Source of the DNA: a bacterium | GTDB taxonomy: Bacteria > Patescibacteriota > Minisyncoccia > Phycocordibacterales > DATDWN01 | DNA: 58,523 nt | Assembly (NCBI GenBank): GCA_037134875.1 | Contig: JBAXLH010000005.1 | Span: 1 to 58,523, forward strand | Reading direction: 5' to 3' | Shown: positions 9,582 to 51,845 of the stretch, in pieces | Position numbering within the stretch: position 1 is the first letter of the stretch | Layout: each line of letters opens with the position of its first letter | Translations under genes and position numbers: made by a program | Notes under the pieces: model-generated | Told to the model about the DNA's origin: nothing | The model's database searches: none | Seen by the model: only the letters and a program-made list of their open reading frames with translations

Positions 9582-9604
9582 ACCCCCACCACACACCCTG
9601 TCAA

Positions 9605-9635
9605 ACACAACAAAAACCCCTTTCGGGGCTTTTGT
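9605..9635 (-). terminator. Intrinsic terminator of the lysozyme-like gene
   Basis: On the minus strand, aaaagcccc-gaaa-ggggttttt followed by a T-rich tail. Confidence 0.7.
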
Positions 9636-9642
9636 GTAGTTG

Positions 9643-10185
9643 TTACTTATTGAGAGCGATTGTCTGAGAAGCGTCTGTCTGTGCAGTTTGAGTCTGGTAT
9701 TTACCCCAACATGCTCTAGATGAGCTCCATGGCTGTGTGCCCTGTTTCTCATACAATTCGCGTGCGTAGGCAGTATTACCTTCGAGTGTATAGATGTTAT
9801 AATTTTTTTCCTGAGATGTTTCGAGATGATAATGCTCGTTTATCTGCATCACACCAACATCCTCATTATTTACAACTCCTCGATGGATACTTCCATCCTT
9901 ATCAAGCTGTCTAAAGTGAGATTCACATTTTGCAATCTGAATCATAATGGGTATGTCAGAGAAGTACTTTCGCACGTACTCTTCGGTACTCATGATGATT
10001 TCCACTTCTTTTCTCGATATTTCTCTTACAATGTTCTGGTCCTCCAGTTTTGGAGCGTCTGTGACTGTGACTGGACTTGCGAGTCCCCCAGCTGCAGACA
10101 TAACCATAAGCAAACTAATAGCAGTGAAATTTAAAATACGTGTGTGTTTAGATAATAATTCTGAATGTAATGCGGTAGTGGACAC
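9643..10185 (-). CDS. Secreted lysozyme-like / SLT (Rpf-like) transglycosylase
   Basis: Hydrophobic N-region, IAKCES catalytic-Glu motif, GVMQIN, and GTQPWSSSRACW; start uncertain. Confidence 0.75.
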   Translation of the reverse strand: MSTTALHSELLSKHTRILNFTAISLLMVMSAAGGLASPVTVTDAPKLEDQNIVREISRKEVEIIMSTEEYVRKYFSDIPIMIQIAKCESHFRQLDKDGSIHRGVVNNEDVGVMQINEHYHLETSQEKNYNIYTLEGNTAYARELYEKQGTQPWSSSRACWGKYQTQTAQTDASQTIALNK

Positions 10186-10302
10186 CCTAAAAGCGGGTTT
10201 CCAAAATAAAAACTCAGTACTTCTGAGTTCCTTATACTATATCATACTCGACCCCATCTTGTCAATACAACAACACAAAAACAACCTCTTGAAAAGGTGC
10301 AA

Positions 10303-10337
10303 AAAATGGCTCAAATAAAGGATATAAGAGCCATTTT
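10303..10337 (-). terminator. Hairpin downstream of the adhesin operon
   Basis: aaaatggctc / gagccatttt inverted repeat. Confidence 0.55.
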
Positions 10338-10375
10338 CAACACACATTATTTACCCCAAAAATCAAGTAGTTTTT

Positions 10376-12070
10376 CTAGAAATCTTGGTACTGGAGAGGT
10401 TGGAGTGAAAAGAGAGCAGAAACGTTCTTTGCAGCGGCAATGTTTGGCAAAACACAGTCATTTTTGCCTATACAATCACCCTGCCAACCCGAAAATCGCC
10501 ACTGAGCTGAGTCTGGATAGGCTCGGAGTGTCACTGTACTGCCCTGATCATATTTTTTTGTACACGTCGCACCACAATTTATAAGACCATCAGGACTTCC
10601 GCTCGTAATACTCTTTACTGACCCACCATAAGTCTTGGTCACATTCACATTGAGCTGACTGTAGACCGTCACACTGGCAGACTTTGAAGCACTACCCGAA
10701 GCATTTGAACAAGTAATCGTATAGGTTGAATTTGTATTGATTCCAGAGATAACCTTATTTCCTTCCGTCGTCGGAGTCACAGCACCTGTCCATCCACCGG
10801 AAATATTGCAGGATGTTGGTGTATTTGTAGTGAGCCAGTAAAGGTTGGTATTAAATCCAGACGTTCCCGACACTGGATTTGCAGTGAAAGTGGTGATGGT
10901 TGGAGGAGCTGCTGGACATGTGACTGAATCAATAGCAAAACCACCATTTGCAGCATTGGCAGAATTTTTTGTTGCCACCCAAATATAATAGGTTTGACCT
11001 GGAGTAGATGCAAATGACTGGCTTGTTCCGGCACTTGTATTTTGAAATGATGGGTTATATATATCAAAAGTTGGACTTACAGAGAAGTATGATTGCGTAT
11101 ACCCAGCTGGCAGAGTCCATGAAGCATTGACCTGAGTACCTGGAGCTGGACAAGAAAGGACAAGGTTGGTTGGAGTTGGTGGTATTGTAACTTTGACTGT
11201 ATCTGATGTTTTTTGTCCGTTAGCACCAGAACACGTAATAGTACTTGAATAATATGTATATGGATTTGGTATATATGGTGATGCACTTGATGTCCCTCCA
11301 TTTGGATTAATCGCAACACTTGGATTTCCTGTTAATAGGTAACCTGAAGATAGAGTACAGCCGCCAGAAGCATTTGCTATAGCACCCCATGACAAACCAT
11401 ACGTAGCTCCAATTGGCAAGTTATTATATGGCCCCCAAATCTGAGGGACTTCAACTGGTCCGTCTGTATTGGTGTAATAACCGGCAGTAAACCAACCATA
11501 ATTTCCACTACCACTTGGCCACGGAACACTTGTAATTTTGAGATCTGGTGTACCAAGTACAGGTATAGGGTTTTGAACTGTAATTGTAAATGTTGACGTA
11601 ACTGGAACCATTTTACCTACCCCATTGAGAGGATATTCATAAACTTGAAAAGTTACAATATATGTACCTGGTGTAATATTTCCACTAATCGTATAAAGAG
11701 CATCATATCCATAATTTGAATAAATTGTTGCATCGAGACCATTACTGCCGTTATTTGCATACTGAAATGTACATGTACCACCTGTTGGACAACCTGTTAC
11801 GCGCCAGCTAACATTTGTCCATCCTGTTTGACCCATATATTGACTACCCGCCCATGTGGTTATTGTTTTTAAATACAACCAATCACCTTGATTGATTGTA
11901 ATATTTCCAGCTGTACTATAATAATATGGCCACAAAGTTGAATTTGTGTAATACTGTTGAACAGCAAGATATCCGGTAGAAGCACGCACCGACACAGTCA
12001 AAAATAATGAAATAATTAGTACTAGCGCAAAGTATGTACTGTATGAAATAAGTGTAGTTAATTTTTTCAT
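10376..12070 (-). CDS. Secreted S/T/G-rich adhesin-like protein (Ig/PKD-like repeats, C-terminal divergent InlB B-repeat-like domain)
   Basis: Signal peptide from MKKLTT (ATG 12070), Cys-bridged beta-rich modules, CGATCTKKYDQGSTVTLRA...FSGWQGDC, ends PLQYQDF. Confidence 0.75.
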   Translation of the reverse strand: MKKLTTLISYSTYFALVLIISLFLTVSVRASTGYLAVQQYYTNSTLWPYYYSTAGNITINQGDWLYLKTITTWAGSQYMGQTGWTNVSWRVTGCPTGGTCTFQYANNGSNGLDATIYSNYGYDALYTISGNITPGTYIVTFQVYEYPLNGVGKMVPVTSTFTITVQNPIPVLGTPDLKITSVPWPSGSGNYGWFTAGYYTNTDGPVEVPQIWGPYNNLPIGATYGLSWGAIANASGGCTLSSGYLLTGNPSVAINPNGGTSSASPYIPNPYTYYSSTITCSGANGQKTSDTVKVTIPPTPTNLVLSCPAPGTQVNASWTLPAGYTQSYFSVSPTFDIYNPSFQNTSAGTSQSFASTPGQTYYIWVATKNSANAANGGFAIDSVTCPAAPPTITTFTANPVSGTSGFNTNLYWLTTNTPTSCNISGGWTGAVTPTTEGNKVISGINTNSTYTITCSNASGSASKSASVTVYSQLNVNVTKTYGGSVKSITSGSPDGLINCGATCTKKYDQGSTVTLRAYPDSAQWRFSGWQGDCIGKNDCVLPNIAAAKNVSALFSLQPLQYQDF

Positions 12071-12071
12071 A

Positions 12072-12524
12072 TTATTTTTGATATCGAATAGATACAAATG
12101 TTAAATCTGCTTGTTTTGTGAGATCCACAGAAATTCGTTGCTGACCTTTTGAAGCGACTATCTTGCCTGTACCGCCTGTATTGGAACTACTACTTGCCAC
12201 GAGCCACTGTTTATATTCGAGAAAAGCTTTGTACATCGAGAAAACAGAACCTATTTTATTGTTTGTTATATATTCCAAATAATCCCCTTTTTGATCTTCT
12301 GGTGTCTTGATTGAATATGATTTTGAGAGAAGGGTTCGCTCAAATATGAGGTCGTCTGGATAGTCCGATGGGTACTGAGGAATTTCAGGTGGTTTTATGA
12401 AAGTTACTGTTGTTGAGACTGTATTCTTACTTTTTATATTGGTGTACACCATATAAGAAACTCCTACAATAGCAACAACAAGAATGACTATGACGAGTAT
12501 TTTTATTACAGTAGCTCTATTCAT
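12072..12524 (-). CDS. Small membrane-anchored protein, paralog of 16288-16755
   Basis: N-terminal TM helix; YPSDYP, Y..L...QW and KGQQRISV motifs. Confidence 0.8.
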   Translation of the reverse strand: MNRATVIKILVIVILVVAIVGVSYMVYTNIKSKNTVSTTVTFIKPPEIPQYPSDYPDDLIFERTLLSKSYSIKTPEDQKGDYLEYITNNKIGSVFSMYKAFLEYKQWLVASSSSNTGGTGKIVASKGQQRISVDLTKQADLTFVSIRYQK

Positions 12525-12533
12525 TGTGTTTGA

Positions 12534-15500
12534 TTAAAACTCTTGATAATTAAGTGGATCGAGAGAAAAGAGTGCCTTTGCCGTTTTGGCCGCACCTGTC
12601 ACAGAAACAGCACATACATTTCCACTCGTTGGTCGAGTACAATCCCCTTCCCATCCAACAAATTTCCATGCACTCGAGCTTGGTACTGCACGGAGTGTAA
12701 CCGTCGTGCCATTACTATAACTTTTTACACACGATATACCACAAGAAATTCCCCCATCGTCACTCGCTACTGTTCCTCCATATGAAGGTTGGACTGTCAG
12801 GTTGTATGTTGTCAAAATAATTGGTGTGACTGTTACTTGTCTCGTTACACTACCTGCACTGTTTTGACATACGAGGGTAAATGTTGTTGGAGTCGAGAAT
12901 CCTGTGACTGTCTCACTGCCCCCGGCAATTGATTTTGCACCACTCCATCCTCCAGATGCAGTACAAGATGTTGGACTGCCTGTAGTTGTCCATGTGAGAG
13001 TTGTTGTACGTGGCAGAGCACTTGTTGGTGTCGTTGCAGAAAGATTGAGAGTTGGAGTCACAACTGCAGTAGATACTGCGACAGTCTTACTTGCTGTTGC
13101 AGGTGTTGGTATGGAACACAAGTTTGCAAAACCAGTATGGTTGGCTACTGTACATGTATATGTTTTGGTTTGGGCTGACGAGAGCGCTGCACACGAGAAA
13201 TTTGCTGTTGTATTACCTGTACCTGTCCAATTTACAAATGTACACTCAGAAGGATTTAGGGTGACATAAGCATTGTTGACCCCATAATTACAACTAACAG
13301 CAATTGGTGTACCGGTCTGAGCAGTAGTTGGTGCTGTTACTGTACCAGCTGTTGGGGTAATACATGATCCAGAAGCACTTGGATCTACACAAGTCGTATT
13401 TTGCAGAATATATGAACTGGAAGCACCATTTGCACCATATGCTGAATGAACCCACACGCTATATGTTTGTCCTGGTGTGGTTGAAAACGATTGACTTGTT
13501 CCAACACTAGTTGAAACACCAGCAACAGTTGGACTTTCGTAGAAATAGCTGGATGAATAACCTGCGGGAAGACTCCATGTTGCGGAGAGTGTTGTGCCAG
13601 GAGTAGGACAAGAAAGAACAAGGTTTGTTGGAGGAGGAGGTGTGTTTACTACAAGACTGTCAGAGCCAGACCCGCCTGCACCAGTACACGAGAGTGTATG
13701 TGTTTTTGTAAGAGCATTAGTTGTAAATATTGAACTGCCACCATTTACATTCACAGATGCTCCATCCAAAGTACAACTTGTTGCACCAGAAACAGCACCC
13801 CATGACAGAGTATAGTCATAGCCGTAGTGAAGCATTACTGGGCCATCAGTATTTACATATGGTGCCCACCACACAGTGGTATGAGCCTTGTCAGCCCATG
13901 CAGTGAGTTTCAAATCAGGCGCTGGAGGTGTTGGACCGACAACTGTATATGGTGTGGATGCTTGAGAATTAAAATCTACAGTATCCAAATTTACAAATGA
14001 GTTTGCATATGCTCTAGCTGTATATGTACCAGCAGTATTCACCGTCCAGTAATCCTGACTCCATAACGAATGATTACTTGTGAGAGAATACACGCGCGAC
14101 GCATGTGGAGCAAGCATACTTGAATCGGAAGTGTAGACATTTATATCACTCGAAGTATTTTTTGGTATATTGCCAGATTTATTTCCGTAAATACTGTTAT
14201 AGAAAACTGGACCACCGCCAGGCAAAAAAGCTGTGGTGTACGAGCTGTTATTTATAATCGCTAAATATGGGTAAATCTTTTCACCAATATTGAATGTACT
14301 TTTTATATTACCGTTTTGATCGGTCAAATAAAATTGTGTAATTGATAGTGTTGATTTTCCACCACTTCCGCCAGTTGTCGGCAAACAATAATAAATTGCA
14401 CAAGATGTATTACATTTTTGAACAGAAACAGATGATACTGGACAACTATTTGTGTTTTGTGCCCCATTATCACATTGTTCTGTGCTTTGTACTATTCCAT
14501 CTCCACAACTTGCTGGTGCACTACACGAGTTGAGTCGACAACTGATACTACATGTCGAAGGACATGCACCGTTTGCAGACCCACGATCACATTGTTCGCC
14601 TGTTTCTTGTATGCCATTACCACACACCGGTCCGGATGGAGCTGGTGCTTGGAGATTTACTGTGACTTGTGCGAGAGTTCCGGCAGATGTTGTGTCCCCT
14701 CTTTTTTGCAAATAAAATACTGTGCCATTATTTACCCATGCGCCTGATGTGTATGTTCCAGCACCTGGTCCACCCATCATAGCAAGAGTTCCGGATGGAC
14801 TACTGACACGCAAATCATATTCACACGTTGCATTGGTTGAAATAGTTGTCACTCCGACTGGCTGACTTGTGATAATAGGATTTGGATTTGCAGAAATGGT
14901 TCCGGTACATGCTGGAGGGTTTGAGGTTTTAACTGCACTACATGATGCATTTGCTCCACCGTTTGTCCCGGCACACTGCCAAGTCCACGGACCTGTACCA
15001 GAAAAACCGGTTACTACTCCAAGAGCACATAAACCTGCACTTGAGGAACTCAAAGTTGAAAATGATTGACCATTTGAAGATCCACACTGACCGGCCGTAG
15101 AAACAACTGGATCTGAGACTGTTATTGAGGGACACTGAGTTTGTCTTCCAATACCGTCAGTGAGTTTTATTCTATCGTATGTTCCTGAGGTTGAGAAAGA
15201 TGTTGTAAATGTATCACTCCCAACATTTAATGTAGACTTGGATGAAGGATTTCCTCCTTGAGCTGACCAATTAAAATTACCGTCCCCATTTATACCAGTA
15301 AAAGTTACACTTTGATTTGTGTATACAGATGTAGAACCAGAAGTAAGTGTACATTCTGGTGGAGTAGTCACCACTGGCGGTTGACTTATTGTCACCACCC
15401 TATCCTGAGATTCTGAGTTGACGGGAGACGTACATGTCAGACGATATGTCTGTGTTGGATTTGATGGACTGTATGTCAGATTTCCTGTAGATACTTGTCC

Positions 15501-16277
15501 CGATGAATCTGTACCAGATGTTACTGGAGCATATGTACCCCCAGACAATACACTAAGTGTCCATGGAAATGGACCTCCTGTGCCGAAAGCAAAACTGACA
15601 GATGCACTCGTACCAGACTGTACAGATGAAGGAGTTATGCTAAATGCCTGAATAGAACACTTTGGAGCTTGTCGTATTTTTATATAAAAATCCTCATCAA
15701 GAATATTACCTGTCTTTGATGATACGCCTATCCTCCAAGGACCAGCACCTCTTGTAGCATTTGGGTCAACCTGCAAAGTGAAGACTGCTTGATAAGTACC
15801 ATTTCCACCTTGGAATACTCTCTCACAAATTCTTGCGCCATATGCAGGATATGTATACGATGATGCTCCACCATTTATACCGCCAGTTGCAGTACAATTG
15901 CTAATCTGTACAGTCTGACTTGGGTTGGAAGAATTTTGGTAGAAATAACCAAGTGGTGTTCCATTAAATATAGAACCAATGCCCAAAGAAGGTGTATCTG
16001 TTAAAGCCGAAGTTACCTCAATTGTTCCTGTAACAGTAATCACAGCACCAGGATCAACTTCGTATGTATAAATGGGACTACCATCATCATTTTTTTCTCC
16101 AGAATCACTGAATGTCCCACTTGGTGAATACACGTTCATTGAAATACTTCTATTGAAAGTATCTGCACGTACAACTGAAATTATTCCAGAAAAATAATAT
16201 GCACACAGGAAGCTCAAAAATATCATACTACCTATTACCGCCTTTTTCCCAATTTTATTTTTTATTTTTTGTACCAT
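12534..16277 (-). CDS. Large secreted adhesin/S-layer-like protein with Myxococcus-type Cys-rich repeats and a C-terminal InlB B-repeat-like domain
   Basis: Signal peptide; CGNGIQETGEQCD and CGDGIVQSTEQCD repeats; module shared with 10376-12070; ends PLNYQEF. Confidence 0.8.
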   Translation of the reverse strand: MVQKIKNKIGKKAVIGSMIFLSFLCAYYFSGIISVVRADTFNRSISMNVYSPSGTFSDSGEKNDDGSPIYTYEVDPGAVITVTGTIEVTSALTDTPSLGIGSIFNGTPLGYFYQNSSNPSQTVQISNCTATGGINGGASSYTYPAYGARICERVFQGGNGTYQAVFTLQVDPNATRGAGPWRIGVSSKTGNILDEDFYIKIRQAPKCSIQAFSITPSSVQSGTSASVSFAFGTGGPFPWTLSVLSGGTYAPVTSGTDSSGQVSTGNLTYSPSNPTQTYRLTCTSPVNSESQDRVVTISQPPVVTTPPECTLTSGSTSVYTNQSVTFTGINGDGNFNWSAQGGNPSSKSTLNVGSDTFTTSFSTSGTYDRIKLTDGIGRQTQCPSITVSDPVVSTAGQCGSSNGQSFSTLSSSSAGLCALGVVTGFSGTGPWTWQCAGTNGGANASCSAVKTSNPPACTGTISANPNPIITSQPVGVTTISTNATCEYDLRVSSPSGTLAMMGGPGAGTYTSGAWVNNGTVFYLQKRGDTTSAGTLAQVTVNLQAPAPSGPVCGNGIQETGEQCDRGSANGACPSTCSISCRLNSCSAPASCGDGIVQSTEQCDNGAQNTNSCPVSSVSVQKCNTSCAIYYCLPTTGGSGGKSTLSITQFYLTDQNGNIKSTFNIGEKIYPYLAIINNSSYTTAFLPGGGPVFYNSIYGNKSGNIPKNTSSDINVYTSDSSMLAPHASRVYSLTSNHSLWSQDYWTVNTAGTYTARAYANSFVNLDTVDFNSQASTPYTVVGPTPPAPDLKLTAWADKAHTTVWWAPYVNTDGPVMLHYGYDYTLSWGAVSGATSCTLDGASVNVNGGSSIFTTNALTKTHTLSCTGAGGSGSDSLVVNTPPPPTNLVLSCPTPGTTLSATWSLPAGYSSSYFYESPTVAGVSTSVGTSQSFSTTPGQTYSVWVHSAYGANGASSSYILQNTTCVDPSASGSCITPTAGTVTAPTTAQTGTPIAVSCNYGVNNAYVTLNPSECTFVNWTGTGNTTANFSCAALSSAQTKTYTCTVANHTGFANLCSIPTPATASKTVAVSTAVVTPTLNLSATTPTSALPRTTTLTWTTTGSPTSCTASGGWSGAKSIAGGSETVTGFSTPTTFTLVCQNSAGSVTRQVTVTPIILTTYNLTVQPSYGGTVASDDGGISCGISCVKSYSNGTTVTLRAVPSSSAWKFVGWEGDCTRPTSGNVCAVSVTGAAKTAKALFSLDPLNYQEF

Positions 16278-16287
16278 AGTTTTTTAA

Positions 16288-16755
16288 TTATTTTTCTAGT
16301 TGAAATGTTATTTGAATATCATTGACCTTTACGGGTGCGATAATGACAGAAACCTGCTGACTCCCTTTTTTAACCTGTATGAGTGCTGTATTTTTGGCAA
16401 TTGAATTTGAAATAACAACCCAGCCTTTTTGTGGTAACTCCGTTGCGTATAGATTTATTGCATCAAGCATATTTTTGCCTGAAATATATGAAATATTGAT
16501 TTGTTTTCTACCATCAGGCATTTTTACCTCTCCGGAATAGTTAATTTTTTTGTCTTCCAGCATTATTTCTCTCGGAAAATCTGAAGGTAGACCATCATAC
16601 AGGGAAACTGTGGTACCTGTTGCGTAGCCTTCTGGAGTAAGAACTTTGTATGGTTTTTTCTTTGTAAGCTCAGGAATAAAAACGATACCGATAACAATTA
16701 TTAAAATTAAAATAACAACTACTATAAAATAGTTTGAATTAGATTTATTTTCCAT
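16288..16755 (-). CDS. Small membrane-anchored protein, paralog of 12072-12524
   Basis: N-terminal TM helix; LPSDFP, Y..L..KGW and KGSQQVSV motifs. Confidence 0.8.
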   Translation of the reverse strand: MENKSNSNYFIVVVILILIIVIGIVFIPELTKKKPYKVLTPEGYATGTTVSLYDGLPSDFPREIMLEDKKINYSGEVKMPDGRKQINISYISGKNMLDAINLYATELPQKGWVVISNSIAKNTALIQVKKGSQQVSVIIAPVKVNDIQITFQLEK

Positions 16756-16837
16756 ACCAAAATTATACTATATATAAAAAGTAAATGACAGAGAAAGACA
16801 CAAAAATGTGGATAAGATACAGGGTTTAAAGATAAAC

Positions 16838-16879
16838 AAAAAGTCCGCGATGGGTGCCAGAGGCAACCGATCACGGACT
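16838..16879 (-). terminator. Intrinsic terminator of the GC-rich gene
   Basis: Minus strand agtccgtgatcggttgcc-tct-ggcacccatcgcggact followed by tttt. Confidence 0.75.
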
Positions 16880-16886
16880 GTTATAT

Positions 16887-18623
16887 TTACGGGACGTCAT
16901 TCCCATCACCTCCGTCGTCAGATGACTTAGGAGTTTTGGGAGCAATCACCGTGAGATCAATAGCGTTACTCACTGCACTATTGAGCTCAATATAAAGTTT
17001 TGCCTGACCAATCGGCAGATCCGGAACACTCACTGTGATGAGCTCCGAAGCGCACGACTGGATCCCGGCATAGAACTTGTCTCCAAACTCGCTGACGAAC
17101 GCCACACGAGTTTTGCCACCCGAACCCACGCAACCTTCGGTGGGTAGAGGAGCAACATAAGTCGCCGGATCATTATGTGTCACACCCTTTGCGAGGATAG
17201 ACACAGTAGACCCAGACGAAATCGTGGAAACTTTATTGAGTGTAGTCGGGTCGACCGCACTCATTACAAATGTGTCGTCAAACTGCGTCCAAAAATCCAC
17301 TACAGACGAGTTCGACGAGCTGGTAAATACTCGAATCTTCGTGCCATCCGTGATCTCGACGTCGCCAACAGGGTTGTTGACAACAAAGAGCCCAGGATAA
17401 CGCTCGACTTTGTACTTACCAATAGAAGCACCTGACAGATCCAGACGAGTCTGGGTCGACAGGCTATTGTATTCGGGTCCGTTGGTAACAAGGATGAGCT
17501 TGTTACGCGTCCAATCTCCCTCTTTGTAGACCACCATATACTTGGTGTCATAGAGAGACGGGTCGCACGAACCATTATTAACTACGCAGGTCTCCCTCTT
17601 ATACCCGCCAGTCGGAAGAGGGTTAGTCTTCGGATAGAACGGGTATGCGACATCGCCAGAAGACCCATCATCAACCTTGTCCCAAATCACAGTCCTGTTG
17701 ACATCAGTCACCCGATACCAAACTGTGGAAATCTTTGGAAACGTAGTAGAGTTACTTTTTCTTTCTACCAGGTTGACCATAAATCCAGAAGAATTGACAA
17801 CAGCCCAATTTTCTCCGTCAGAACTCCCAGAATCAAAGGTTTGGAGTGACACTCCATCAGTGCTGAAGCCCAGTTTCTGCTTCATTTCTTCGCTTGGAGC
17901 GAAGGCGCACTTAGTCTCACGGAGATACGTCGACGGGAGAACCCCATTGACCTTTCCGGAAACAGTGTCAATCGCATTAATGATATCATCCCGGGTCGTG
18001 AGACCCGTGATAGCCGTATCGATAGCTCGAAAGTCGCCGTTGTTCACAGCACCGAGCAACTCGATCGGTCCAGCCGCGCAGGCGTAGCCAGGCGATGGAT
18101 TATGCCAAAAGTCCGAAGATCCGCCCACAGTCAGCCAGTCGGCCGACTTGAAGACGGGTGCCATCCAGACATTGACAAACGGTTTTATTGATGGATCATC
18201 CTTTGCCATCTCTTTGTAGAGCCAGGCAGCCTTCGCTTTCGCGAAACCTTCTGGCAAAGAGAAGTCATTGGACAAAACAGTGGAGCAAGGGGTAAACCTT
18301 GCCAAAATATATTCATGAATGAGAACCCGATTGCTCGGATCAGTCACGTCATATTTATTGACTGGGCCATATTTGTTTCCAAACATGGTATGACCCTCGC
18401 AGACATAGGTGCCCGCGAACGTGGTCGTATTGTCCCATTCAATAGTAATGGAAGACCTCTGCGGAACAGAGATCCGTTCCAAATACGGAGTGACCTTGTT
18501 GATCACCCAGTCGGCATCAAAATTCGACGCCGAGTTGTTACCTGCATAGTTTATTTTTACCTCCGCCCCGAGTTGGGACAGAAGTGCAAACGTGACAATG
18601 AACAATCTGTTCAGTTTGGACAT
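16887..18623 (-). CDS. GC-rich secreted protein, probably horizontally acquired; degenerate gluzincin-like N-domain and IPT-like C-domain
   Basis: ATG 18623 preceded by AGGAGG and an upstream TGGTATAAT; signal peptide; LIHEYIL...LPEGFA; spot counts of three 60-nt lines gave 38-55% GC. Confidence 0.75.
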   Translation of the reverse strand: MSKLNRLFIVTFALLSQLGAEVKINYAGNNSASNFDADWVINKVTPYLERISVPQRSSITIEWDNTTTFAGTYVCEGHTMFGNKYGPVNKYDVTDPSNRVLIHEYILARFTPCSTVLSNDFSLPEGFAKAKAAWLYKEMAKDDPSIKPFVNVWMAPVFKSADWLTVGGSSDFWHNPSPGYACAAGPIELLGAVNNGDFRAIDTAITGLTTRDDIINAIDTVSGKVNGVLPSTYLRETKCAFAPSEEMKQKLGFSTDGVSLQTFDSGSSDGENWAVVNSSGFMVNLVERKSNSTTFPKISTVWYRVTDVNRTVIWDKVDDGSSGDVAYPFYPKTNPLPTGGYKRETCVVNNGSCDPSLYDTKYMVVYKEGDWTRNKLILVTNGPEYNSLSTQTRLDLSGASIGKYKVERYPGLFVVNNPVGDVEITDGTKIRVFTSSSNSSVVDFWTQFDDTFVMSAVDPTTLNKVSTISSGSTVSILAKGVTHNDPATYVAPLPTEGCVGSGGKTRVAFVSEFGDKFYAGIQSCASELITVSVPDLPIGQAKLYIELNSAVSNAIDLTVIAPKTPKSSDDGGDGNDVP

Positions 18624-18866
18624 GATGTCCCTCCTGCCCGTATTATACCAAGCACATTTTATAAAGTAAAGCAAGTTTACAACTGTGGATAACCTATTTT
18701 TAATAAAATGTAGCCTACAATATAGCTATTTTACCAAAAAATCACATTATTTTATCAAAAATTTGACCCATTTTTAGGTTGATAATTTGCCAAAATATCG
18801 ATACTATGAATATGGAAGCGCCAAGCTTACTACGGCTCGTCACTGAGCTCAATCGGGAGGAAAAAA

Positions 18867-18938
18867 GTGAAAAAAATCAAGCCGATTCGTAAAGCAAACG
18901 GTTGCTCAAGATGTGCAACCCGAAGTTCTAGTCATTAA
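18867..18938 (+). CDS. Possible 23-aa basic CxxC peptide (MKKIKPIRKANGCSRCATRSSSH), GTG start
   Basis: GGGAGG 6 nt upstream of GTG; inside a unit with promoter (TTGATA-17-TACTAT) and terminator. Confidence 0.35.
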   Translation: MKKIKPIRKANGCSRCATRSSSH

Positions 18939-18960
18939 ATCTAGTAATTATTTTTTAATA

Positions 18961-18993
18961 CCGCCTCAGATGTTTCTATAGCATCTTTGGCGG
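18961..18993 (+). terminator. Hairpin terminator
   Basis: ccgcctcagatg ... catctttggcgg followed by atttaatttat. Confidence 0.6.
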
Positions 18994-19027
18994 ATTTAAT
19001 TTATGAAAAATATGATAATATATAATT

Positions 19028-19483
19028 ATGGATAACTCGCATCAAATTTTTATTGAGGTGATTAGTAATCTAAATAAAAACAGTATTGAACCAATTGTTT
19101 ATGGTTCTTTTGGTCTGTACCTACTACTTAAAATGAATAATGAGTCAAATGATCTTGATTTTATTATAGATAAACCCGAACAGTTTACTGTTTGTAAAAA
19201 AGTATTGAAAAAAATGGGATTTGAAATTGATCCGGATCACGATCGAGAACTTGAAAGAAATGGTTTCTACGTATCTTTTATTGACAGATCAGAAATTGAG
19301 ACATTAATTTCCGAACAACTCAAGATAAAAAAGTTTTCTGATAACTTGGGAAATTATTTTAATATTGACATCTCGCAATATAAAAAAATTTATAGTAAGG
19401 GATTAGAAAATAAATACAGAAAAGCAAAAAAAGAGAAAGAAGATCTGGAGAAAATAAGGATGATTGAAAAATCTCAAAATTAA
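19028..19483 (+). CDS. Small nucleotidyltransferase-like protein (Pol beta superfamily)
   Basis: VYGS...NDLDF signature; low GC (25-30% in spot counts). Confidence 0.6.
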   Translation: MDNSHQIFIEVISNLNKNSIEPIVYGSFGLYLLLKMNNESNDLDFIIDKPEQFTVCKKVLKKMGFEIDPDHDRELERNGFYVSFIDRSEIETLISEQLKIKKFSDNLGNYFNIDISQYKKIYSKGLENKYRKAKKEKEDLEKIRMIEKSQN

Positions 19484-19995
19484 TGAAACTATACATTATT
19501 CCAGGATATAAGGAGGATTTGAGAAATAAAGGCTACAAGTCCATCATCGCAAAAACAAAACACACATATGATGTCAGATTTTTGAAATTAAACTATGATC
19601 AGTTATTGTGTGATTTTCCTCATATAGAACCAAATTCAATTGTTATTGGTTTTTCTATTGGGGCTCTTATTGCTTACTATATTTCAACTAAAATCAAACT
19701 GGACAAAGCGGTGATTTGTTCTATGTCCCCTTTGTTAGAAAGTGATTTTAATACATTCGATAAAAAAGATCAGAGAGAAATAATCAAACTCCTAACTCTC
19801 AAAACATGGAATAAATTAAAACAAATGAAGTATACTAAATCATTATCACAATCAAAAAATATTTTTCTATTCGGAGAAAATGAAATTGCAACACTGAAAA
19901 ACAGATCAAAAAAACTGGGAAAATATGTTGAAATAAAAAATACTGGACACGAACTTACTGAGACCTATGTGAAGGAAATATTAAAATATATATAA
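19483..19995 (+). CDS. Small alpha/beta hydrolase
   Basis: GFSIG nucleophile elbow and C-terminal GHE; TAATG overlap with the upstream gene. Confidence 0.7.
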   Translation: MKLYIIPGYKEDLRNKGYKSIIAKTKHTYDVRFLKLNYDQLLCDFPHIEPNSIVIGFSIGALIAYYISTKIKLDKAVICSMSPLLESDFNTFDKKDQREIIKLLTLKTWNKLKQMKYTKSLSQSKNIFLFGENEIATLKNRSKKLGKYVEIKNTGHELTETYVKEILKYI

Positions 19996-20004: not shown

Positions 20005-20505
20005 CTATCCCAATTTTTCTTTAAGCTCAATTGCTCGCTGTATTATTCTCTCCCCTATCTCGCCCCAGTCAAAATATTGTTTGTAATCTTTTGGATCAAT
20101 AAGTTTTATTTCCGTAATACTCCCATCTGGATCAAAAATAAATTCACCATAGGGTTCGACAATACAGACATAACGTAATTGATTGAATACATCACCCTCA
20201 AAATGCACTTCTTGATATCCGATCGGTGCAAATGAAATAACTTTCATATTTGATTCTTCTTGAATCTCTCTTTTTAAACACTCCTCAAATGTTTCTCCTT
20301 TTTCAATACTTCCACCCGGAAGAATCCTATGATTTCCTTTGCCACTGTACACGACTACCATTTTGTCATTCAGAAAACAGACACCGTAACACTGCGTTAC
20401 TTTTTGTGACAGAAGATGGTCAAAAGAATCAGCATCTTCGTATGCAACTTTTGCTACCCGACCTTGTCCGTCGGTAAATTGTGATTGTATGTGTATCATA
20501 TTCAC
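20005..20505 (-). CDS. Nudix hydrolase, paralog of 49986-50477
   Basis: GGSIEKGETFEECLKREIQEESNM Nudix box. Confidence 0.88.
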   Translation of the reverse strand: MNMIHIQSQFTDGQGRVAKVAYEDADSFDHLLSQKVTQCYGVCFLNDKMVVVYSGKGNHRILPGGSIEKGETFEECLKREIQEESNMKVISFAPIGYQEVHFEGDVFNQLRYVCIVEPYGEFIFDPDGSITEIKLIDPKDYKQYFDWGEIGERIIQRAIELKEKLG

Positions 20506-22617: not shown

Positions 22618-22664
22618 AATATACTAGATTGAGAGCCTAGGGAAACCTAGACTTTTTTATTTAC

Positions 22665-22695
22665 AAAAATTACAAGGTTCGACCTTGTAATTTTT
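22665..22695. terminator. Bidirectional terminator
   Basis: 13-bp stem aaaaattacaagg-ttcga-ccttgtaattttt. Confidence 0.75.
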
Positions 22696-22717
22696 GCTAT
22701 TATTGACTCCAAATATT

Positions 22718-25270: not shown

Positions 25271-25477
25271 ATGTTTTATGGAAAACCCATGCAGACAAAC
25301 ATTTTGTTATGGACATTTGTTTTAACAACATTTGTATTTGGAACCTTTCTTGGAGTTGTTTATATTTTTTCGGTGATAAGGCTGGGGTATGATTCAACTC
25401 CTGCCAAAGCTAGTCTCCGAATGAGCTTGCTACTCTTTGTTATGAGTGTCGTCGCAAAATACCTCTTTGGAGGATAA
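25271..25477 (+). CDS. Small membrane protein
   Basis: Two hydrophobic helices; downstream of a TTGACA-containing promoter; start 25271 or 25289. Confidence 0.5.
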   Translation: MFYGKPMQTNILLWTFVLTTFVFGTFLGVVYIFSVIRLGYDSTPAKASLRMSLLLFVMSVVAKYLFGG

Positions 25478-25478
25478 A

Positions 25479-25739
25479 ATGGCGAGGACAGTCAGAGAAC
25501 TGGTAGTCGAGATTGATGCTATCTTTTTTGGGACAGGTGACTCTCGTGTGTACCACCACACCGAAGTCCTGTGGAATCTCAAAAAGAAATTATTTGATAT
25601 CAGTTATAGATATCACAAGGAAAAATCTGCACTGGGGCAAGTTTGTGCAGACACCAATACTGACACTCCCCTTACCGAAGGGCAGTATCAATCTTTCCTA
25701 AAGGAAGCTCACTGGCTCAAAACCCGTACTTCCAACTAA
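25479..25739 (+). CDS. Small hypothetical protein
   Basis: GGAGGA SD before ATG 25479; terminator hairpin at about 25748-25785. Confidence 0.55.
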   Translation: MARTVRELVVEIDAIFFGTGDSRVYHHTEVLWNLKKKLFDISYRYHKEKSALGQVCADTNTDTPLTEGQYQSFLKEAHWLKTRTSN

Positions 25740-25830
25740 CTCATTATCCGTTTCAGTCACAGAGAAGACTGAGGCGGTTTTTTATTTTGTAAAATTGACA
25801 ATTTTTTAATATGATATACAATATTGCCAG

Positions 25831-26037
25831 ATGGATAGGGTAGCTTTTTATTTAATATCAGTTTCATTTTCGTCCGGAATGTATTACAGCTTGAAAGCCA
25901 TAAGAATATACATTAAAGAAGGAGAGGAGAGTTGGAAAAAAATCGTCGTCTGGGGGGCGATTGCGAACATGTCATTTATATTTGCGATTTTTATCCTGCT
26001 AATCTCAAGATTTTCAATCCCGACAACAAACCACTAA
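25831..26037 (+). CDS. Small membrane protein
   Basis: Two hydrophobic helices; TTGACA promoter upstream; hairpin and T-tract at about 26041-26078. Confidence 0.55.
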   Translation: MDRVAFYLISVSFSSGMYYSLKAIRIYIKEGEESWKKIVVWGAIANMSFIFAIFILLISRFSIPTTNH

Positions 26038-26096
26038 TAGGTCGCCAAATACCAAAAAGGTTATGGCGATTTTTTTTGGACAAATTTATTTTTTCT

Positions 26097-26702: not shown

Positions 26703-26775
26703 ATTGAGTACATATTATCACAAAATTATCAATTTTCAATAATGCTTATTATTTGAAGTAAAATCAATTTGAAGG

Positions 26776-26915
26776 ATTTTATTTTTGGAGCATCCGCAAG
26801 GAGCAAGCATGGTTTTGTCAACGACCCCGAGCTTTGCGAGGAGCTCATTGACAAATTGCGACTGAGGACAGAATAAACCCGGCGCTGGCCGGGTTTATGT
26901 CTCCAAAAATAAAAT
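26776..26915. repeat. Palindromic repeat element, copy A
   Basis: Perfect 15-bp outer inverted repeat attttatttttggag/ctccaaaaataaaat; core 26806-26871 aligns with 51892-51953. Confidence 0.85.
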
Positions 26916-26941
26916 AATGAGAATTGATTTTACGAAAACGA

Positions 26942-27724: not shown

Positions 27725-27848
27725 AAACTTTCAAATTTGACTAAGGTCGCGTATGAAATTTACAAAAGAATTGGAGCCTGCCTGAGTGTACAGGTGACAA
27801 TTCTTTTGTAAATTTCAGACGATGAGATTAGTCATAATTTGGAAGTTT
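27725..27848. repeat. 124-bp long hairpin filling the rplQ-rplM spacer
   Basis: Perfect 20-bp inner stem 27754-27773/27798-27817 plus an imperfect ~20-bp outer stem. Confidence 0.85.
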
Positions 27849-36897: not shown

Positions 36898-37347
36898 TTA
36901 TGATCTGTTAATATAAAATTTTCCTTGAAGATAATTTTCTATAACTTCAAAACTTGGAAAATATCTTGGAGATGGCAGATTATCCAAATCAAACCATTCC
37001 CATTGTATAATCTCGTCAGGTTCAGTCACTTTTGCTTCTCCTTTCCATTCTGTAGCAACAAGACCCACAGTCATAAAATGTGCATGTTCATTTTTGCAAT
37101 TATGTACCGATATTACTTTTGGATTTTTTATAGTTATACTCGTTTCTTCTTTGACTTCTCTTATAGCACCCTCTTCAAATGACTCACCCCACTCAAGTTT
37201 TCCTCCAGGCAAACACCACTCCCCACTACTACGAAATGCAGAATCAGCTTTATCTGGATCAGGATGTCTCATTCCCATGAGAATTTTTCCATTATTTTCA
37301 AGTATAACCCCAAATCCTGCCCCTACTTTTTTCTTTTCAGTATTCAT
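36898..37347 (-). CDS. Nudix hydrolase (NUDT15/MutT-like)
   Basis: GGKLEWGESFEEGAIREVKEETSI and EPDEIIQWEWF. Confidence 0.9.
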   Translation of the reverse strand: MNTEKKKVGAGFGVILENNGKILMGMRHPDPDKADSAFRSSGEWCLPGGKLEWGESFEEGAIREVKEETSITIKNPKVISVHNCKNEHAHFMTVGLVATEWKGEAKVTEPDEIIQWEWFDLDNLPSPRYFPSFEVIENYLQGKFYINRS

Positions 37348-37384: not shown

Positions 37385-37822
37385 TCATATATTTCCATCA
37401 ATAAAATTAATGTTGTTTATAAAAGCCGGGATCAATTCTTGGTGTCCTACAAATATATTTTCTGGCAAATTGTTCATATCAAACCATTTCCATTCTGCAA
37501 ATTTATCTGGCTCCGTCACAGTGGGAACACCGTGCCATTTTTTCGCGATAAAATCTATGTGTACATAATGAACATCATCCCTTGGATCATTTACCATATG
37601 TAGATATTCAAATTTTTCTCCAACAATACCTGTCTCTTCCTCCAGTTCGCGTTTGGCACAACCTTCGAGTTTCTCTCCCCATTCAAAATGACCTCCGGGC
37701 AAACACCATGTTCCATATCCTGTTTTTCCAATTCTTTTACCCATAAGCAGTTCTCCTTTTTCATTAAACACAAAAACATTTACACCGATTTTTGGATATT
37801 TTTTATTTAATGTTTCAGTCAT
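37385..37822 (-). CDS. Nudix hydrolase (NUDT15/MutT-like), tandem paralog
   Basis: GGHFEWGEKLEGCAKRELEEETGI and EPDKFAEWKWF. Confidence 0.9.
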   Translation of the reverse strand: MTETLNKKYPKIGVNVFVFNEKGELLMGKRIGKTGYGTWCLPGGHFEWGEKLEGCAKRELEEETGIVGEKFEYLHMVNDPRDDVHYVHIDFIAKKWHGVPTVTEPDKFAEWKWFDMNNLPENIFVGHQELIPAFINNINFIDGNI

Positions 37823-39017: not shown

Positions 39018-39857
39018 TTAAAGTAATTCTATTTCCTCTCTGACCTTTTGTGCTTCTTCACCTCTCACCCCGACAGTTTCAAGTATGTCAGGATTTTCCA
39101 AAATCGTTTTACACAGAACAATACCAGCATTCAAAAGCTCCTTTTTGGCGTGACCATCGAGAGTTGTGAGACATGTGAGTGGATGAAGTTTTGTCTCCAA
39201 AATCATATCGTGCAAGTTGCCGTGTGTCGGATAATTCCAACCAATCATCACGAGACGATTGCCTTGATGTGATCCATATTCTATCGCTGTACTCGTAAAT
39301 TTTGTATTTGTCACAAGCCATCCCTCATCGAGCTGTCTACCTTTTTTGCCGTAATCAAATGTTTGAGTACTGAGATCATCAAATCTTTCTTTGACATACA
39401 GTGCAATTTTCAAATCGGATTTAACACCGAGTTGATTGTGAAATTTTGCCTCTACCATAATAAGTTTCTCTGGATTCCATGCCACTACATCTATTTCGTG
39501 TTCAACATACTGACCCTTCACAATCTGACCCGTAAGAGTTTCAAAACCTTTTGTTTTTAAAATTTCAGCAACATAGTCCTCGAATGGAAAACCCGACGGA
39601 CCGAGCTCCATAATCGCTCGCTTGAGAGAATATCGTATTGCAACTGGTCGATCATCTGAATGGAGAAGTTCGAATGCTTTATTATAAATATCCCGAGTAG
39701 TCATTCCATCAGTCAGCGTATCTGTGATAGTACTCAAAATTGACTCTATTATTTTTGAGTTTGCACCAGCGTGCCTGAGTGAGTGTTCGAGCTTTGCTAC
39801 ATCAAACTGCTCTTTTGTCCCATCAAACTTTATAATATAAATTGGTTCCGTATTCAT
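39018..39857 (-). CDS. ATP-cone + Mrr-like PD-(D/E)xK nuclease fusion
   Basis: IIKFDGTKEQFDVAKL ATP-cone; GFPFEDYV...HEIDVVA...VEAK nuclease motifs. Confidence 0.8.
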   Translation of the reverse strand: MNTEPIYIIKFDGTKEQFDVAKLEHSLRHAGANSKIIESILSTITDTLTDGMTTRDIYNKAFELLHSDDRPVAIRYSLKRAIMELGPSGFPFEDYVAEILKTKGFETLTGQIVKGQYVEHEIDVVAWNPEKLIMVEAKFHNQLGVKSDLKIALYVKERFDDLSTQTFDYGKKGRQLDEGWLVTNTKFTSTAIEYGSHQGNRLVMIGWNYPTHGNLHDMILETKLHPLTCLTTLDGHAKKELLNAGIVLCKTILENPDILETVGVRGEEAQKVREEIELL

Positions 39858-39901: not shown

Positions 39902-41107
39902 TTAGGCTACTTTTTCAATAATTCCCCCACCGAGACAAACCTCTCCGGTATACAAAACAGCAGATTGACCGACAGCTACACCATTTTGAGGCACTTCAAA
40001 ATCAATACAATATTCATTATCTTGTTTTGTAACAGTACACCGTTGTTTTTCTTGTCTGTATCTAATTCGCACAGAACAGACAAAAGGAAAAGCTGGTTCT
40101 TGTCCGGAAATGAAATGCAAATTTTTGACAGTGATTTTTTTGGTTGAAAAAACAGTTTCTTTTTCTGTCTCTTTGTCTGCAACAGTAATCGTATTTTTTT
40201 CCAAATCTTTTGACACCACAAAAAGTTTTGGACTGTTTGCGGTTTTTTTGATTATTTCAAATCCATGACGCTCACCGATGGTAGAAAATATTGCACCGTT
40301 GTGTTTGCCGATGACTTCACCTTTTGTATTTAGAACATCGCCAGGTTTTTCTGAAATATAATGAGCCAAAAATTCCTTCATATCGAGTTTACCCAGAAAA
40401 CAAACTCCTTGACTATCTTTTTTGGTAGCTGTCGGCAAGCCAAACTTCTCAGCGAGCGTTCTGACTTCCGGCTTAGTCATTCCACCAATAGGAAAAAGAA
40501 TATGTGAGAGCTGGTCTTGACTTAGTGTGTACAGAAAATATGACTGATCTTTGTTTTTGTCGACAGATTCGTGGAGCTCAAAAAACTCAAAATCTTTTGA
40601 ATGGGAATGTTCTGACGGAACATTGCGCAGGCCGACGGGCTGAGCACGAAGAAATTTGCCAGCAGGCAAATATTCTGTTTCCGGCAGAATATTCCCTGAA
40701 AAATATTTTGAGTTTTTATGCACCACGGCATAGTGTCCCGTCGCAACATAATCAGCTCCCATTTCAAGAGCTTTTTTGAGAAAAACACCGAACTTTACAT
40801 ACTTGTTACAAAACACGTCCGGGTTTGGTGTGCGACCGACGCGATATTCGTTTATCATATAATCTGCAACCTCTTTTTTATATTCTTCCTGACAGTCCAG
40901 TGTTATAAACGGTACACCGAGCGTCGCACAAACTCGCATTGCATCCCGTCGTTCTTCTCGCCAATTACACTCAAGAAAATCAGGATTCCAAACACGCAAA
41001 AAAACTCCAGTCACATCGTAGCCCTGTCTTTTGAGCAAAGCCAAAGCAACAGAGCTATCCACTCCACCAGAAACTCCCACAAAAACTTTTTTTCCTTTTG
41101 AGACCAT
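39902..41107 (-). CDS. mnmA: tRNA 2-thiouridylase MnmA with a ~40-aa insertion
   Basis: SGGVDS, TPNPDVFCN, ATGHY, KDQSYFL and SQGVCF. Confidence 0.96.
   Translation of the reverse strand: MVSKGKKVFVGVSGGVDSSVALALLKRQGYDVTGVFLRVWNPDFLECNWREERRDAMRVCATLGVPFITLDCQEEYKKEVADYMINEYRVGRTPNPDVFCNKYVKFGVFLKKALEMGADYVATGHYAVVHKNSKYFSGNILPETEYLPAGKFLRAQPVGLRNVPSEHSHSKDFEFFELHESVDKNKDQSYFLYTLSQDQLSHILFPIGGMTKPEVRTLAEKFGLPTATKKDSQGVCFLGKLDMKEFLAHYISEKPGDVLNTKGEVIGKHNGAIFSTIGERHGFEIIKKTANSPKLFVVSKDLEKNTITVADKETEKETVFSTKKITVKNLHFISGQEPAFPFVCSVRIRYRQEKQRCTVTKQDNEYCIDFEVPQNGVAVGQSAVLYTGEVCLGGGIIEKVA
40581..40717. repeat. Palindromic element inserted in-frame in mnmA
   Basis: Perfect 13-bp outer inverted repeat aaaaactcaaaat/attttgagttttt enclosing at least three hairpins. 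Confidence 0.8.
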
Positions 41108-43392: not shown

Positions 43393-43428
43393 AATCAAAA
43401 AACTTCCCAAATGGGAAGTTTTTTGATT
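43393..43428. terminator. 17-bp perfect inverted repeat, probable terminator
   Basis: aatcaaaaaacttccca-aa-tgggaagttttttgatt. Confidence 0.75.
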
Positions 43429-50477: not shown

Positions 50478-50484
50478 ATTAATT

Positions 50485-51836: not shown

Positions 51837-51845
51837 ATGATTTGA

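Follow-up and report, generated by a model that had tools for sequence, protein, structure and literature searches.

The stretch of DNA analyzed here, called the window, comprises positions 1 to 58,523 of contig JBAXLH010000005.1 (GenBank assembly GCA_037134875.1). It is a piece of a Patescibacteria chromosome that carries murein genes, a ribosomal protein operon, rpoA, grpE, dnaK, dnaJ, and genes for aminoacyl-tRNA synthetases, and its nearest GrpE relatives bear the names Zambryskibacteria, Paceibacterota, and Minisyncoccia. Two intergenic elements in this window, copy A (positions 26758 to 26933, + strand) and copy B (51846 to 52015, + strand), each consist of a structured core, termed type A, within a long closing helix, P1. 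Copy A is flanked by the start of grpE (26702) and the stop codon of rpsI (26942), both genes lying on the - strand. Copy B adjoins, at a distance of 10 nucleotides (nt), the likely start codon (ATG, 51836) of a GH18 gene, which is on the opposite strand and has the element upstream of it. This ATG opens a signal peptide (MKSTSLLKIF...), and the public gene call begins 17 codons later (region 51785 to 51845).

The outer arms of copies A and B are the two longest of the 33 inverted repeats in the window. Those of copy B (51846 to 51876 and 51985 to 52015) are 31 nt long and 94% complementary, and those of copy A (26758 to 26790 and 26901 to 26933) are 33 nt long and 85% complementary, with a perfect inner stretch of 15 bp. 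The two copies have direct-repeat blocks of 46 and 29 nt in common, each at 83% identity. As RNA of the + strand, copy A folds at -72.4 kcal/mol (z of -7.1 relative to dinucleotide shuffles) and copy B at -86.3 kcal/mol (z of -10.2); with DNA parameters, the corresponding z values are -8.3 and -8.5. A covariance model built from relatives (R1) scores copy A at 137.6 bits and copy B at 129.2 bits, the next match in the window reaching 17 bits. A sequence-only reading of this DNA had pointed to two look-alike palindromic copies at these places, as confirmed by the inverted repeats, the direct-repeat blocks, the folding, and the covariance model; it located copy A correctly but drew it too narrowly (26776 to 26915), the full hairpin extending from 26758 to 26933. 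A third candidate at 40581 to 40717, an inverted repeat of 18 nt whose arms are separated by 101 nt, was dropped: it lies inside an mnmA-like gene (39902 to 41107), obtains 17 bits from the type A model, and is judged to be chance or unrelated. Long palindromes lacking the core, which might represent insertion sites, were not found in the window. Copy A recurs unchanged in five contigs from other samples, two of which break inside it.

Judged by sequence and predicted fold, copies A and B belong to a hitherto undescribed family of structured intergenic elements of about 125 to 190 nt in Patescibacteria of the Zambryskibacteria/Paceibacteria type. A degenerate pattern applied to one-genome-per-species GTDB contigs (185,579 species genomes) returned 17 matches, of which 14 are true homologues, all in metagenome-assembled genomes of Patescibacteria, and 3 are chance matches in unrelated phyla. 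Those genomes are labeled Zambryskiibacteriota, Minisyncoccia, "Patescibacteria group," or Saccharibacteria, the last in automatically labeled assemblies. A relaxed pattern matched 15 metagenome contigs; among viral contigs, the strict pattern had no match, and the loose pattern produced 67 chance matches, none with a partner for helix P4 (described below). Running R1 on the fetched loci and on syntenic contigs, and adding variants identified by hand, brought the set to about 45 elements, which are designated by the L number of their locus. The covariance model that the sequence-only reading had suggested thus recovers both copies and their relatives and supports a shared fold, and the proposed copy-number check turned up further relatives across loci, although the number per locus is low (2 in 58 kb of the window, 3 in L100, and at most 5, namely 4 of type A and 1 of type B, within 8 kb of L087). 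The sequences of copies from one genome have diverged strongly, and compensatory change has kept their stems.

No Rfam 15 family matches anywhere in the window at gathering thresholds; at permissive thresholds, the best scores for the window copies are istR (20.6 bits, against a threshold of 45) and Bacillus-plasmid (16.9 bits, against 31). Elements in 12 other loci likewise had no Rfam match, and the resemblance to Bacillus-plasmid (RF01691) did not recur among them. In the literature on noncoding RNA motifs of Parcubacteria and the wider candidate phyla radiation (CPR), no description of the family was found.

On the + strand, the type A plan is an AT-rich closing helix (P1, 30 to 40 bp) around a three-way junction core. 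The 5' arm of P1 in copy A (26758 to 26790) is made up of an outer stem (26758 to 26770), a purine-rich internal loop (26771 to 26775), and an inner stem (26776 to 26790) that ends in UUUUUGGAG. The 3' arm (26901 to 26933) consists of the inner stem (26901 to 26915), the loop AAUGAG (26916 to 26921), and the outer stem (26922 to 26933), and ends 8 nt from the rpsI stop codon. In copy B, the 5' arm (AUAAAAGGACAACCUAAAAUAAUUUUUGGAG, 51846 to 51876) has an A-tract followed by a stem, a design found in window terminators, and the 3' arm (CUCCAGAAAUUAUUUUAGAUUGUCCUUUUAU, 51985 to 52015) is defined by sequence, fold, and inverted repeat. The inner end of P1 reads UUUUYRGAG/CUCYRRAAA.

Inside P1, a long arm (26793 to 26868 in copy A and 51879 to 51950 in copy B), delimited by fold, alignment, and covariation, starts with P2, in which UCC pairs with GGA (26793 to 26795 with 26866 to 26868, and 51879 to 51881 with 51948 to 51950). 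An internal loop follows, C-GCA-G opposite C-GA-G, and leads to P3, a helix of 8 bp that differs in sequence between copies A and B and is paired in both (26799 to 26806 with 26856 to 26863; in copy B, GGCCGUGA/UUACGGUC, 51885 to 51892 with 51938 to 51945, with two G.U pairs). Between P3 and P4 is a bulge of 7 nt, GCAUGGU in the window copies (26807 to 26813 and 51893 to 51899) and GC(A)UGGU in the family. P4 pairs NNNGUCAA with UUGACNNN (UUUGUCAA/UUGACAAA, 26814 to 26821 with 26848 to 26855, in copy A; 51900 to 51907 with 51930 to 51937 in copy B). The pairing of ttgtcaa with ttgacaa proposed from the sequence is real and is this stem, whose inner 5 bp (GUCAA/UUGAC) are invariant across 34 relatives. 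P4 is capped by the apical stem CC-GA-GC-NNN-GC-GA-GG, with a tandem G.A motif between G-C pairs and a variable triloop (UUU in copy A, 26822 to 26847; GAA in copy B, 51908 to 51929). The remaining hairpin, P5 (26873 to 26898 and 51951 to 51984), has a second tandem G.A near its base and a conserved loop, C-GCUG-G in copy A (26884 to 26887) and C-GCAG-G in copy B (51966 to 51969), or C-GCWG-G in the family.

Several details of the earlier reading change under this alignment. It had taken the right-hand hairpins of the two copies to be unlike and inferred a modular element from them, but both are homologous P5 hairpins whose stem covaries and whose loop is kept. It had also regarded GNA triloops as a feature of the element. 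The family triloop varies (AAA, AUA, UUU, GAA, and others) and lies among GC pairs and the tandem G.A motif, GCGAAGC being present in copy B and a few relatives only. The second supposed GNA hairpin, CC-GCA-GG, is no hairpin, because covariation pairs its flanking C and G with distant partners (pairs 28/107 and 30/106); the GCA is one side of the internal loop between P2 and P3. The same Watson-Crick pairs contradict the register of a kink-turn, which was considered for this CGCAG/CGAG loop and rejected; a kink-turn has a 3-nt bulge followed by G.A/A.G, and on its other strand GA adjoins the C-stem directly. A pseudoknot between ACCA of the 5' flank and UGGU of the bulge was rejected too, being supported once (ACCG/CGGU in L106a) and contradicted by the combination of ACCAC with CACGGU.

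Conservation of the fold extends over the family. RNAalifold reports compensatory changes in 19 of 33 pairs, and the unpaired nucleotides of the core are near-invariant across copies. When the full structure was counted on 34 copies, pairing extended to 78% of cells (63% in shuffles), changes on both sides were seen in 35 of 52 pairs, and covariation scored 0.447, compared with 0.173 in shuffles (0 of 500 reach the observed value) and 0.07 to 0.15 in slid registers; these figures come from an alignment fitted to a model that already contained part of the tested structure, and the copies are phylogenetically related, so that the shuffle statistics overstate independence. The paired share over the same copies is 95% for P3, 98.5% for P4, and 95% for P5. 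In L093, L094, L095, and L100a, the apical 3' GA has become UC, which gives Watson-Crick pairs under a UUCGG loop (containing UUCG), confirming that the two apical GA dinucleotides face each other. Additionally, the presence of a C following GUCAA and that of an extra A following CUC are perfectly correlated.

The elements do not appear to be coding. An invariant AUG opens a frame, but indels of 1 or 2 nt in the apical stem break this frame between copies. Spurious open reading frames (ORFs) have been called across elements, in public annotation and mechanically (L105, 9711 to 9956; L080, 330 to 665; L082, 2576 to 2917; and others); they include an 81-amino-acid (aa) "gene" over the L105 element, and seven such "proteins" cluster solely as translations of the element.

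At least four different cores, termed types A, B, C, and D, are found inside one and the same outer hairpin frame. The element is modular in this respect, as the sequence-only reading had proposed, although the P5 difference on which that proposal relied is no evidence for it. In most relatives, P1 is interrupted by a conserved asymmetric internal loop, GUYGA opposite GAGWAA. This loop separates a hypervariable inner stem from an outer A-tract stem, often ACAAAATCTC/GAGATTTTGT. The two ends of the frame are consistently unlike (GTTGA on the left versus the complement of GAGWAA on the right). The ACAAAATCTC...GAGATTTTGT ends are common to many copies and absent from copies A and B and from the type B element of L087, in which the outer stem differs in sequence and the internal loop is kept. 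A kink-turn was rejected for this loop as well, its 3' strand being six nt that end in AA. Type B elements (L080, L087, and L092) measure 121 to 138 nt and contain a small three-way junction and the hairpin UUUUC-AGYA-GAAAA. Two copies in L087, L087c and L087d, are near-identical duplicates, including the normally variable part of P1, and their similarity ends at the frame.

The gap between rpsI and grpE, which holds copy A, permits a comparison across genomes. Seven contigs whose GrpE is 70 to 83% identical to that of the window share the order rplQ-rplM-rpsI-[gap]-grpE-...-dnaK with it. The gap contains a type A element in the window, L106, and L111; a type C element in L105, closest to L100c, a second type C core that lies upstream of rpsF; a type D element in L107, with the same P1 and the UUCGCAG...CGAGGA module around another interior that lacks P5; and small type B elements in L110 and L112. 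In L113, the gap is 65 nt and has only a plain hairpin (AAAAACCCCTTTTGGGGTTTTT) and the grpE promoter. The site is therefore one where the element stands in place of a plain terminator: it is occupied in seven of the eight genomes, in one orientation throughout, antisense to both rpsI and grpE. Position and polarity are stable over this divergence, and the interior turns over. The empty site of L113 is an intact plain terminator without an excision scar, and by itself it does not decide between gain and loss. The empty-site comparison advocated by the sequence-only reading thus reveals presence/absence polymorphism, but also a stability of position and orientation that comes near to the conserved placement which that reading had named as speaking for a cis-regulatory RNA and against its own proposal.

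At other sites, occupancy varies. The site upstream of dnaK is occupied in L076 and L106 and empty in the window (DnaK of L076 being 84.5% identical), and a site downstream of dnaK is occupied in L105. Contigs L108 and L109, which have GH18 homologues, contain nothing upstream of GH18, but their synteny differs there. At copy A, a grpE promoter, TTGAAA-16-(TG)TAATAT, is located between the element and the ATG, ending 9 nt before it, and copy A is therefore not part of the grpE mRNA. The grpE gene appears nearly leaderless and lacks a Shine-Dalgarno sequence (region 26703 to 26757). Farther downstream, two contigs of the window species, L001 and L003, encode identical GrpE and have small ORFs of 68 and 86 aa in differing order (window positions of about 25400 to 26040), a strain-level rearrangement of small cassettes.

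Over all loci, the neighboring genes are diverse, and the orientation of the element relative to them is not fixed. Clustering of the ORFs within 2.5 kb revealed only three recurrent neighbors: secG (three loci, with copies upstream in L078, L099, and L104), prfA (two loci), and the grpE-dnaK block. Downstream of prfA, the element has opposite orientations in L087 and L094. In twelve copies, the 3' base of P1 is no more than about 15 nt away from the stop codon of a convergent gene (rpsI, recA, tig, lepA, fba, prfA, dnaE, comM, and others), and no second terminator is present; on the 5' side, genes that read toward the element often have a GC-rich terminator of their own, 25 to 75 nt upstream of it. 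The A-tract/stem/T-tract design of P1 is that of the window terminators at 22664 to 22696 and 43393 to 43428. A simple terminator scan did not call P1, its loop exceeding 8 nt. Copies also form back-to-back pairs with their 5' ends facing and no more than 35 nt apart (L080, L081, and L104), and looser pairs occur in L087. No transposase, RAYT, reverse transcriptase, integrase, or Cas gene was identified among about 60 ORFs of the window or about 40 neighbors in other loci; the search for a RAYT or an IS200-family TnpA prompted by the sequence-only reading accordingly found no Y1/HUH gene in either set. The assembly of L106 includes two IS30-like genes with rve and HTH_38 domains (L109, 2018 to 3004 and 7581 to 8517), neither beside an element, showing that DDE transposases exist in the lineage.

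The two strands of the element are not equivalent. When the core is folded by itself, the + strand is the more stable one in 39 of 45 elements, all types included, the mean difference being -3.3 kcal/mol. Counts of G.U against A.C are 9 to 5 in P3 and 12 to 2 in P5 (21 to 7 together), and all three conserved non-Watson-Crick motifs are purine-purine on the + strand (C-GA-G), whereas on the opposite strand they would be tandem U.C mismatches. P1 is strand-symmetric: its arms are nearly all Watson-Crick, and G.U and A.C mismatches number 50 and 47. From the asymmetry of the core, the + strand of the window ("E+") was taken as the structured strand. Among copies with Pfam-confirmed neighbors, this strand is mostly antisense to the neighboring genes (13 versus 5). 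A polar motif in the 5' flank (TACCACT.. or GGCACTAAC; TACCACT/GGCACT) is present in 14 of 45 copies, compared with 1 of 45 on the mirrored side.

Our preferred reading, to which we assign a probability of roughly 40%, is that the family represents a small structured RNA produced from the + strand and nested in a hairpin that doubles as a bidirectional terminator or insulator. The + strand would specify a small, stable RNA; P1 would end or insulate transcription between neighboring units; the conserved purine-rich loops may offer a platform to which a protein or another RNA binds; and the family would diversify by local duplication together with exchange or rapid turnover of the core within the conserved frame. 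Such elements would resemble the orphan noncoding RNA motifs of the Weinberg type and terminator-sharing small RNAs, which likewise have covarying stems and conserved loops, lie between genes, are not consistently associated with any one gene, and occur in a narrow range of taxa. They would differ in having no recognizable dedicated promoter, in occupying a terminator-like frame shared with unrelated cores, and in forming back-to-back pairs.

A number of observations weigh against this reading. The wobble bias is modest and the copies are related, so that the choice of the + strand, itself made from sequence comparison, is not decisive. Upstream of the + strand form, no sigma-70 promoter recurs at a constant distance; a weak sigma-70-like match precedes copy A (26715 to 26743), and copy B has none. 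The idea that the invariant TTGACA of P4 belongs to an internal sigma-70 promoter was rejected, since neither strand has a correctly spaced -10 box. The 35 nt or less between the 5' ends of back-to-back pairs is too little for separate promoters. The T-tract of P1 is itself paired with the A-tract, and the 110 nt enclosed would be unusual for an intrinsic terminator. Copy B is so close to the likely GH18 start (10 nt) that its opposite-strand form may there belong to a 5' untranslated region and not to a 3' end. Finally, the recent duplicates L087c and L087d and the presence of several cores in one frame are also what a mobile element would be expected to show.

That the family is instead a nonautonomous mobile DNA element, akin to miniature inverted-repeat transposable elements, is the alternative that survives best, and we regard it as possible but doubtful. 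The frame would be recognized by an enzyme, the cores would be cargo, and the fold would be a by-product or mildly selected. Besides the duplicates, whose similarity ends at the frame, and the four cores in one frame, there are several copies per genome (as in L087 and L100), and the left and right frame ends differ, as the left and right inverted repeats of such elements often do. The window and L076 have their elements at different positions, L108 and L109 lack one at the GH18 site, and the rpsI-grpE and upstream-of-dnaK sites are polymorphic for presence. Moreover, contigs break inside the element, and a relative carries IS30-like genes. Set against this, no inspected copy has a target-site duplication, the conserved 5' CTA not being mirrored at the 3' end; the outermost sequence is not kept in the window copies or in the L087 type B element, only the internal loop being retained; and there is no transposase among the window ORFs. 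The middle of P1, P3, and P5 vary yet stay paired, which indicates long-term selection on the fold rather than on terminal repeats. The position and orientation at rpsI-grpE are stable in seven genomes, and the empty site there is a complete plain terminator rather than a scar.

Known repeats comparable to such an element are the BOX repeats of Streptococcus pneumoniae, ERIC, and the Correia elements of Neisseria, all structured, dispersed intergenic repeats, with BOX present in about 100 copies. Repeats of the BOX type are transcribed with neighboring genes, can act as terminators or as RNase III substrates, and have no cognate transposase nearby. Like them, the present element is intergenic and multicopy, and its complementary outer modules form a long stem around variable inner modules. 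It differs in its low copy number (a few per genome fragment), with no target duplication seen, and in its diverged copies with compensated stems, invariant unpaired core nucleotides, and one site conserved across species, and it is not known to have any sequence similarity to these repeats. Integron attC sites, which have complementary R''/R' core sites (RYYYAAC/GTTRRRY) and whose cassettes share one orientation next to intI, were also considered and rejected: the GTTGAGC-like sequence occurs only 5', its partner GAGWAA is not complementary, copies point either way beside housekeeping genes, and the window ORFs include no integrase.

Purely cis-acting punctuation, in which the element would be an elaborated bidirectional terminator, insulator, or RNase III site with no separate function as an RNA, seems unlikely to us as a full account. 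P1 has the design of a terminator in both directions and is strand-symmetric, the element comes directly after the stops of the convergent genes named above, it takes the place of the plain rpsI terminator seen in L113, either orientation occurs downstream of prfA, and it often stands between a stress-regulated gene (grpE, dnaK, groEL, recA, and pnp) and one with high expression. P1 indeed resembles a bidirectional intrinsic terminator in design and placement, and termination there is a prediction, but what stands in its loop is a conserved, strand-specific folded domain of 70 to 130 nt, and its stem is two to three times longer than in the native terminators. Termination as such would not call for a 110-nt core whose unpaired nucleotides are invariant and which has three conserved G.A motifs and a strand asymmetry. 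The separate terminators kept by many 5'-side genes imply that the element is not used symmetrically, and its orientation is fixed at the orthologous rpsI-grpE site. A more speculative reading, which we consider improbable on present evidence, is that the frame serves as a docking cassette at transcription-unit boundaries that hosts the interchangeable RNA cores A to D, these being swapped without a transposase by frame-directed recombination or by an RNA-level mechanism.

The role favored by the sequence-only reading, a single-stranded DNA (ssDNA) structure for an HUH enzyme of the REP/RAYT or IS200/IS605 type or for another ssDNA process, now appears very improbable, even if the asymmetry of the core suits a folded single strand and RNA and ssDNA folds cannot be formally separated from sequence alone. 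The 5'-Y-GA-R-3' context favors sheared G.A pairs in DNA, and the tandem G.A motifs of the element have this context; copy B contains GCGAAGC, and both copies fold well with DNA parameters. The GNA loops are not conserved, however; there is no REP unit with a GTAG-type head, no Y1/HUH gene in the window, and no target duplication; copy number is low and the site stable; one clade has an RNA-style apical loop containing UUCG; and the structured strand, being mostly antisense to genes, would be the leading-strand template, and so less exposed as ssDNA, if genes are co-oriented with replication. REPs are units of 20 to 40 nt with a GTAG head, present in tens to hundreds of near-identical copies in a genome that contains a RAYT gene. 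The likeness to them lies in being extragenic palindromic repeats near gene ends; the present elements are 125 to 190 nt long, have a three-way-junction core, and are diverged. They also differ from the IS200/IS605-derived PATEs in that their ends pair mutually over 30 to 40 bp and are not separate subterminal hairpins, and no PATE-type conserved tetranucleotide flanks both sides of the inspected copies. A further point in favor of ssDNA would be the resemblance of the apical part of copy B to RF01691, a stem GUCAA(C)/(G)UUGAC enclosing GAC..GAGCGAAG.GAGG. This is a resemblance and not membership: the score is 16.9 bits against a gathering threshold of 31 (E = 0.41 in a 351-nt search), the match covers about 45 nt only, taxon and context differ, and neither copy A nor the 12 other loci show it. 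Weinberg 2010 gives no more than a listing of the Bacillus-plasmid motif.

A cis-regulator of chaperone and stress genes, whether RNA leader, riboswitch, or DNA operator, is scarcely credible: copies do lie directly upstream of grpE (window, L106, and L111), dnaK (L076 and L106), and groEL (L078), and others upstream of recA, pnp, and uvrC, but the grpE promoter is downstream of the element and leaves it outside that mRNA, the structured strand is antisense to the chaperone and stress genes, and many copies stand beside diverse, unrelated genes in every orientation.

Other classes were examined and set aside. The CUGAGGA that recalls a hammerhead is part of the covarying P3. For the hairpin ribozyme, twister and its relatives, 6S, SRP, Y RNA, 5S, T-box, retron, and bridge/omega RNA, either a sequence or model match or the required neighboring gene is missing. 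An uptake sequence is not indicated, since the 8-mers of the frame are not overrepresented outside the elements.

Some features of the window lie apart from these elements. Its end (58243 to 58523) contains three tandem units of 'TTTGAAAATTTAATAT-GGGCCCTTAGCTT', none of which is called by ARAGORN or Rfam. Unit 1 is a short hairpin; unit 2 (58309 to 58455) joins the 5' part of a tRNA, an insert of about 95 nt, and an anticodon arm, without a T arm (fold z of -4.8); and unit 3 (from 58488), truncated where the window stops, is a genuine tRNA-Gly(GCC). The insert hairpin of unit 2, UUUUUC-AGCA-GAAAAA (58386 to 58417), weakly resembles the type B hairpin and was rejected as a family member at an nhmmer E value of only 0.4. 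Between rplQ and rplM (27750 to 27821) is a hairpin with 31-nt arms, 87% complementary, and a 10-nt loop; TTGGAGCC is part of it. This hairpin, possibly a terminator, an attenuator, or a ribosomal protein leader, is not a family member by the covariance model. The leucyl-tRNA synthetase gene (44564 to 47524) has a NUDIX domain inserted at about residues 425 to 519, and four more NUDIX paralogues (20005 to 20505, 36898 to 37347, 37385 to 37822, and 49986 to 50528) share a DNA-level repeat, family D1. A block of ORFs without Pfam matches (9171 to 19995) includes a protein of 1,247 aa (12534 to 16277) and internal DNA repeats that are 70% identical (11099 to 11192 and 13557 to 13650); these are probably CPR-type surface or pilus proteins. 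One ORF (39018 to 39857) combines ATP-cone and Mrr-type restriction endonuclease domains and is located beside genes of dNTP metabolism (HD, NDK, and NUDIX).

Genomes of CPR bacteria are tiny, with little room for useless DNA, and to our knowledge very few noncoding RNAs or repeat families have been described from them. The retention of several copies, the compensated stems, the near-invariant unpaired nucleotides, and a conserved site in seven of eight genomes argue for a real function. What appears to be new, as far as sequence comparison can tell, is the combination of a terminator-like frame, interchangeable cores maintained by covariation, and restriction to Patescibacteria. The covariance model and the frame motif will help annotators, as the elements break metagenome assemblies and cause spurious ORF calls. 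If the element is a terminator-embedded, exchangeable cassette, it would represent either a novel organization of small RNA genes or a mobile element of a new style, and if the frame acts as a docking site, CPR bacteria would have a modular RNA gene or mobile RNA-structure system of a new kind, with the type A core as a new ribonucleoprotein scaffold or ribozyme class. If it is an RNA, the family would constitute a new class of structured RNA with three identical G.A-type loop modules, which may point to a dedicated binding protein.

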